Shown here one piece after another: positions 52,944 to 53,262 of a DNA stretch of 64,000 nucleotides. Below the pieces are notes generated by a model, which ran no database searches, was not told where the DNA came from, and was given only the letters and a program-made list of their open reading frames with translations. The stretch lies in the NCBI RefSeq assembly GCF_003790525.1, contig NZ_CP033635.1. One strand, written 5' to 3'. The DNA is from Escherichia coli (GTDB lineage: Bacteria > Pseudomonadota > Gammaproteobacteria > Enterobacterales > Enterobacteriaceae). Position 1 is the stretch's first letter; each line of letters opens with the position of its first letter. The translations under genes were made by a program, and so were the position numbers.

Positions 52944-53262
52944 AGTAGTCTCCTGAGGTTTTATTAGAATCATTATGTTTGAGCGTAGCGTTGGTAACGC
53001 TACCAGGCGCGTGAATGTTACCCCATTTTATGTATGGACATGTAGTGAAAACTACAACCTTGTCGTTCGCTTTGGCATCATTTTCATTATAAAGACGGAA
53101 TTTTGCATCAGCTTCTCATCAAGAAAAACAACTAAAAAATCAATCACAATACTTGTGCATTTCTTTAAACAGTTTTTAAAAACTGACTCCGGGTATGGAG
53201 CTATGGGTATTTTCTTTACCCAATGCTTTTAACAGCAATTAATTTCATAGGATGAAAGCTCA

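Follow-up and report, generated by a model that had tools for sequence, protein, structure and literature searches.

The 319-bp interval that separates the divergent genes narP and yejO in the window (the whole 64,000-nt stretch of Escherichia coli DNA analyzed here) is a real and correctly delimited feature, and it represents the ordinary wild-type state of this locus, which is already known and annotated. Our preferred explanation, to which as a whole we assign a probability of roughly 0.93, is that the interval is the ordinary ancestral narP–yejO region and leads into the common full-length yejO allele. According to this explanation, YejO would be a Sec-dependent type Va (AIDA-I/Ag43-like) autotransporter with a β-helical AIDA-repeat passenger, a pertactin-type domain and a 12-stranded barrel. 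The 110 bp adjoining narP would carry the promoter and leader of that gene, and yejO would depend on a weak promoter of non-consensus sequence within the AT-rich half of the spacer nearest to it; its expression in the laboratory would probably be poor, as for other AT-rich cryptic adhesin genes. The structural part of this description is directly supported by the identities of the genes, the intactness of yejO, the absence of IS5, the exact location of the insertion in K-12, the frequency of the state in the population and the layout in an outgroup, and nothing was found against it. The analysis also corrects the position given for the K-12 element: IS5K lies inside yejO, at codons 22/23, and not in the narP–yejO spacer. 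The significance of this correction is small; K-12 is a poor model for YejO.

The narP–yejO spacer and the IS5K site in K-12

The minus-strand gene at 52296-52943 is narP, encoding the 215-aa nitrate/nitrite response regulator, as judged from its translation, from NCBIfam and from the RefSeq annotation of the near-identical strain SC516; its product scores 454.4 bits over its full length against the NarP equivalog NF007708, for which the cut-off is 343. Because the narP start codon ends at 52943 and the ATG of yejO stands at 53263, the coordinates of the divergent intergenic region, 52944-53262 (no strand), are exact. This spacer contains no mobile element and has a GC content of 36%, against 51% across the whole window; low GC (34-41%) extends over 52900-53600, a tract that comprises the spacer and the 5′ part of yejO. 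The sequence-only reading had described the spacer as uninterrupted, about 320 bp long, AT-rich and free of IS5, and each part of that description holds. Specifically, the 16-bp terminal inverted repeats of IS5, GGAAGGTGCGAACAAG and CTTATTCGCACCTTCC, both of which are evident in the K-12 copy, were used as queries, and the terminal repeat was absent in and near 52944-53262 with up to 3 mismatches allowed, in agreement with the earlier inspection by eye. The sole IS5-end match in the window at this tolerance, at 43926, is at chance level. The spacer likewise lacks an ORF for the 326-aa insH transposase, its only ORF of at least 40 aa being one of 85 codons with no family match. It has no flanking inverted repeats of at least 10 nt, and a search of 52800-53500 for direct and inverted repeats returned short two-copy matches only, plus one 10-nt inverted repeat inside yejO. 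There is also no 4-bp target-site duplication: in place of the TTAT-IS5-TTAT of K-12, a single TTAT occupies 53326-53329 of the window.

This TTAT, on the plus strand at nt 64-67 of the yejO coding sequence, is the target that IS5K occupies in K-12 and that is empty here, as located from the junctions, the BLAST breakpoints and the MG1655 annotation. The left junction in K-12 reads ...GCGTTAT/GGAAGGTGCG..., with a longer reading in a K-12 derivative of …GCTACAGCGTTAT/GGAAGGTGCGAAC…; the right junction in a K-12 derivative reads ...CGCACCTTCC/TTATATTCACCC..., with TTAT duplicated. The insertion falls at codons L22/Y23, within the predicted signal peptide. In RefSeq, MG1655 yejO (b2190) is a two-piece pseudogene, consisting of a 67-nt fragment 1, the 1195-bp IS5K and a 2525-nt fragment 2, with the transposase gene insH8 as b2192 and narP as b2193; the two fragments sum to 2592 nt, the same length as yejO in the window. 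Two publications also place IS5 within the K-12 yejO coding sequence (PMC11005336 and PMC11677980). K-12 therefore departs from the state seen here only by IS5K, which follows nt 67 of the yejO coding sequence and leaves the spacer untouched. The statement that IS5 sits between narP and yejO in K-12 was thus right as to gene order, which older K-12 gene lists give as yejO, b2191, yi52_8, narP, and wrong as to position. The BLAST comparison with K-12 that had been proposed for 52944-53262 does locate an insertion point, but within yejO, about 70 bp outside the interval that had been flagged for it.

Distribution of the empty site and loss of yejO

The uninterrupted arrangement is the prevailing one in the species. 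A 719-bp query spanning the spacer (52744-53462) was matched over at least 80% of its length in one piece by 5364 of 5426 complete E. coli genomes, a count that includes K-12, whose match ends at 53329. With a 400-bp query centered on the K-12 site itself (53130-53529), 5004 of the 5426 genomes (92%) are uninterrupted, BL21(DE3) being one strain with the empty site. The K-12 yejO/IS5 junction, as a 120-bp query, was matched in full by 357/5426 genomes, and every junction carrier that was sampled (ER1709, NEB10-beta, JM109, MG1655, DTU-1 and an O16:H48 isolate from mouse gut) is either a laboratory K-12 derivative or of the K-12 serotype O16:H48. Outside E. coli, the type strain of E. albertii has the order ccmH–narP–318 bp–yejO and encodes an 862-aa protein that is 77% identical to YejO. 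This was the one confirmed locus in a contig scan with YejO; the scan missed E. coli itself, presumably owing to seeds that are exact peptide patterns, and is uninformative on species more distant than E. albertii. Taken together, the lone TTAT, the distribution across the species and the E. albertii outgroup establish the IS-free state as ancestral; it is also the E. coli default, and the earlier suggestion of an ancestral configuration is upheld.

Three other readings of the interval were weighed against this one. Had the K-12 element split narP from the start of yejO, the window alone would have an intact yejO upstream and promoter region, and it is true that insH8 stands, in gene order, between narP and the large yejO fragment. 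This reading is very improbable, since the MG1655 record refutes it: the element lies within the coding sequence, the yejO promoter in K-12 sits upstream of it (PMC11677980), and the K-12 spacer is itself 319 bp long, uninterrupted and identical to that of the window at 318/319 positions, the lone difference being at 53216. Since the K-12 spacer is also uninterrupted, 52944-53262 cannot separate the window strain from K-12, and the contrast that had been drawn with K-12 on the basis of a native upstream region falls away. It is also conceivable that the window descends from a K-12-like lineage that underwent precise excision of IS5, making the empty site secondary. Precise excision would likewise leave a single TTAT, and there is nothing else in favor of such a history, whereas over 64 kb the window shows about 2% divergence from K-12 and several other indels, is all but identical to the avian isolate SC516, and shares its empty site with 92% of genomes and with E. 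albertii; we regard excision as the least credible of these readings. Finally, a protein gene missed by annotation could lie hidden in the spacer, namely the plus-strand 85-codon ORF at 52975-53232, which fills most of the AT-rich spacer. Its stop-free run of 91 codons is long for such DNA, being equaled in only 76/5000 shuffles (1.5%), and the frame is open in K-12, O157 and B2 strains and also, though shifted, in E. albertii. Against this stand 26 non-synonymous versus 1 synonymous codon differences between E. coli and E. albertii, a pattern worse than in the two other frames, a 1-nt indel that alters the C-terminal 17-20 residues, the absence of a Shine-Dalgarno sequence before its ATG, the absence of an NCBIfam match, and the absence of annotation in the RefSeq records examined (SC516, O157 TW14359 and MG1655). 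The substitution pattern led us to reject the ORF as a gene, and a hidden gene is accordingly very unlikely. The ancestral, IS-free configuration is thus the reading that we retain.

The gene itself has nevertheless often been lost. At least 80% of the yejO DNA is present in 4281/5426 genomes, including 357 of the K-12 type, and yejO is intact in at most about 72% of E. coli genomes, a ceiling that is derived from DNA coverage and leaves out point lesions; some 1100 genomes retain no more than 36% of yejO, as a remnant. In B2-type strains, segments corresponding to 53735-54738 and 55196-55824 are deleted with the spacer intact, and the gene is annotated as frameshifted or partial; one isolate has lost 53069-53286 in addition. 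An example is the B2 genome of an EPEC E2348/69 derivative (NZ_LT903847.1), in which the spacer is uninterrupted and the 719-bp query across it is 97.8% identical; its remnant shares the first 472 nt of yejO, and the window retains both of the segments that B2 strains lost. Thus, because B2 strains keep the spacer and carry a deleted yejO, the intactness of the gene cannot be deduced from that of the spacer. In addition, IS1 is found with differing adjacent deletions at the yejO 5′ end or in the spacer of O15_8X, YPE10 and CFS3292 (loci L002, L003 and L012), the deletions corresponding to 53077-54414, 53363-54122 and 53164-54006 of the window, and IS2 insertions lie in yejO of strains 90-3040 and 503440. 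These three independent IS1 insertions suggest that IS elements repeatedly target the AT-rich beginning of yejO. The gene has therefore been inactivated repeatedly and independently, by IS5 in K-12, by IS1, by IS2 and by the double deletion in B2 strains, and the locus provides a tidy example of recurrent, independent pseudogenization of an accessory surface protein.

Beyond this locus, the window has the gene order of the E. coli chromosome, ubiG…gyrA…ato…rcs…ompC…nap…ccm…narP, yejO, proL, yejM…bcr, and is colinear with SC516 (NZ_CP025048.1) at 99.75-99.99% identity. Differences from SC516 are concentrated at the radD–rsuA–bcr side (59389-64000), with 77 in the last 4.6 kb and 3 in the first 59 kb, a jump that is consistent with a recombination boundary near 59-61 kb. 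Between ubiG and gyrA, a three-gene island of about 4 kb (808-4831), absent from K-12, encodes a GntR-family regulator, an MFS transporter and an enzyme of the mandelate racemase/muconate-lactonizing family; the GntR gene is an ORF of 232 aa in the window (908-1606) and is annotated as frameshifted in SC516. Several intergenic regions differ from K-12 in their repeat content. The convergent ccmH–narP gap (52262-52295) is 34 bp with a single hairpin in the window, and K-12 and some other strains have about 176 bp extra; the K-12 insert (3343-3552 of locus L001) comprises REP/BIME-type palindromic units, GCCGGATGCGGCGTGAACGCCTTATCCGGCCTAC and an inverted partner, and is flanked by two copies of a GCCCGATGG…CCATCGGGC hairpin. 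The eco–mqo intergenic region (39122-39229) has one unit of about 108-113 bp where MG1655 has five tandem copies (2304497-2304955) that are 89-92% identical. In the rcsB–rcsC gap (27270-27359), K-12 has about 114 bp extra with overlapping BLAST segments, which suggests that a repeat unit is duplicated in K-12 and single in the window. Finally, yfaS, of the alpha-2-macroglobulin family (9890-14509), is one uninterrupted ORF of 1539 codons from the first ATG, the SC516 annotation being 4515 nt; MG1655 yfaS (b4500) is annotated as a pseudogene, though its alignment with the window is gapless across the region.

Candidate control elements and expression of yejO

Comparison with E. albertii divides the spacer into blocks of unequal conservation. 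The narP-proximal 110 bp (52944-53053) are 93.6% identical, no less than the narP coding sequence with its 92.1%, and this very high conservation leads us to propose that the narP promoter and leader lie there, on the minus strand. The central 63 bp (53054-53116) are 58.7% identical; they are followed by a second conserved block in the yejO-proximal half (53117-53175, 88%), a candidate regulatory or promoter region for yejO, and by the yejO-proximal 87 bp (53176-53262, 76%). The narP-proximal block includes a perfect 8-bp inverted repeat with a 3-nt spacer, GTAGCGTT-GGT-AACGCTAC (52985-53003), 42-60 nt upstream of the narP ATG and invariant across all five sequences aligned. Further elements read from the sequence are a perfect 16-bp palindrome, CAGTTTTTAAAAACTG (53170-53185), which is imperfect in B2 strains and in E. 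albertii; an inverted repeat, TGGGTA-N7-TACCCA (53204-53222); and a Shine-Dalgarno-like AGGA on the plus strand (53249-53252), 10 nt upstream of the yejO ATG and kept in E. albertii. Two terminator-like hairpins in the spacer are weak, with 5-6 bp stems. An Rfam search of 52000-56300 at E ≤ 1 gave no match in the spacer and returned just proL and a sub-threshold antisense match downstream of yejO; proL, encoding tRNA-Pro(GGG), lies on the minus strand at 55957-56033, directly downstream of yejO, with no island attached.

A scan for consensus σ70 promoters over 52800-53400 found none where 1.4 would be expected, and under relaxed criteria the best candidates were weak, matching 8-9 of 12 positions, so that no promoters were assigned. 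With so little GC and no consensus promoter, yejO may plausibly have a weak or silenced promoter. The heptamer search gave no support for control by NarP, whether of its own gene or of yejO: the spacer has a single heptamer of the NarL/NarP type TACYYMT (TACCCAT, minus strand, 53203-53209), which is overlapped by the inverted repeat at 53204-53222, is not in a 7-2-7 arrangement, and belongs to a class that numbers 34 in the window against 29 expected, a chance-level count. Within the library searched, the literature held no functional or regulatory study of intact yejO. In a compendium of 3376 RNA-seq samples, fragment 2 of K-12 yejO, as an IS5-separated fragment, is among the least-detected genes (PMC10392735); because what was measured is separated by IS5, this rank does not bear on intact yejO.

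Two views of what an intact yejO means for the cell were weighed. The gene may be intact but cryptic: a nucleoid silencer, H-NS for instance, would bind the AT-rich spacer and gene start, intactness would confer no phenotype under ordinary conditions, and the losses would reflect weak or negative selection. In its favor are the low GC across 52900-53600, the absence of a consensus promoter and the several independent inactivations (IS5, IS1, IS2 and the B2 deletions). In addition, H-NS represses a number of autotransporter adhesin genes of K-12, which stay silent under laboratory conditions. On the other hand, the full-length ORF is kept in roughly 70% of E. coli genomes and, at 77% protein identity, in E. 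albertii, and this retention argues for purifying selection and hence for expression under some condition. We consider a cryptic yejO a serious possibility, though one with somewhat less than an even chance. Alternatively, intact yejO could be a conditionally expressed adhesin, induced for example by anaerobiosis or by nitrate/nitrite, with the losses reflecting selection against surface YejO in some niches. This proposal is prompted by the conserved divergent control region that yejO shares with narP; the one isolated NarL/NarP-type heptamer in the spacer, at chance frequency, does not speak for it, and we judge the proposal improbable.

YejO among the autotransporters

The yejO gene (53263-55854, plus strand) comprises 863 codons with no internal stop, and its product has the features of a classical (type Va) AIDA-I-type autotransporter; the sequence-only reading had already described an autotransporter with signal peptide, repetitive β-helix passenger and C-terminal barrel. 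The N-terminus, MHQSGSVSLCRSAISVLVATALYSPIALA/S, reads by eye as a Sec signal peptide (aa 1-29, 53263-53349), with R11 in its n-region, a hydrophobic core at 13-26 and ALA before the cleavage site, and it is conserved in E. albertii. The passenger has AIDA repeats at aa 184-245 and 257-315 (Pfam PF16168, E = 1e-21 to 1e-24), plus three weak copies, and ends in a pertactin-type domain (aa 431-555, 54553-54927; Pfam PF03212, E = 3e-45). The β-barrel translocator follows at aa 602-841 (55066-55785; Pfam PF03797, E = 3e-45) and shows homology to the BrkA and Vag8 barrels; TIGR01414 matches aa 456-863 with 372 bits (cut-off 16), and the C-terminus, ...VVWTF, ends in an aromatic residue (Phe). The joined b2190 fragments and the gene of the window are 97.9% identical in nucleotide sequence across 2592 nt, which supports orthology with K-12 yejO, and the context ccmH–narP–yejO–tRNA-Pro (proL)–yejM is shared with RefSeq strains.

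The allele is common, the exact 863-aa protein of the window being encoded on at least 1000 public contigs, and RefSeq names the full-length allele 'autotransporter YejO' in the same context in O157:H7 TW14359 (WP_000554210.1) and SC516 (WP_023141873.1). The sole difference between these two records is the annotated start codon. PGAP starts the SC516 protein at a GTG corresponding to 53314, giving 846 aa, whereas O157 TW14359 and the K-12 pseudogene model start at ATG 53263, the first possible start in the frame; SC516 yejO itself differs from the window by one nucleotide, at 55152. The ATG, the AGGA motif and a positively charged n-region are all kept in E. albertii, and for this reason ATG 53263 is the better-supported start. 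The GTG model would strip the n-region from the predicted signal peptide. The practical value of the comparison is that of an annotation note.

Among proteins of solved structure, the closest relatives of YejO are the passengers of Ag43, of an AidA-I family adhesin and of TibA, together with the Vag8 and BrkA barrels. Matches in sequence searches of the PDB included Ag43 (7koh, E = 8e-38), the AidA-I family adhesin (7ko9), TibA (4q1q) and the two barrels, with the YejO passenger matching the passenger structures of Ag43 and TibA. None of the papers found demonstrates that YejO mediates adhesion or self-association. Like Ag43, AIDA-I and TibA, which are type Va proteins, YejO combines AIDA-type β-helix repeats and a pertactin-type domain with a C-terminal barrel. 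However, its scores against the NCBIfam equivalogs for Ag43 (135, cut-off 1200) and AIDA-I (72, cut-off 1200) fall far short of the thresholds, which marks it as a distinct paralogue. YejO and Ag43 also differ upstream: Ag43 is subject to a Dam/OxyR phase switch, whereas the spacer upstream of yejO has no GATC sites, ruling out a switch of the Ag43 type.
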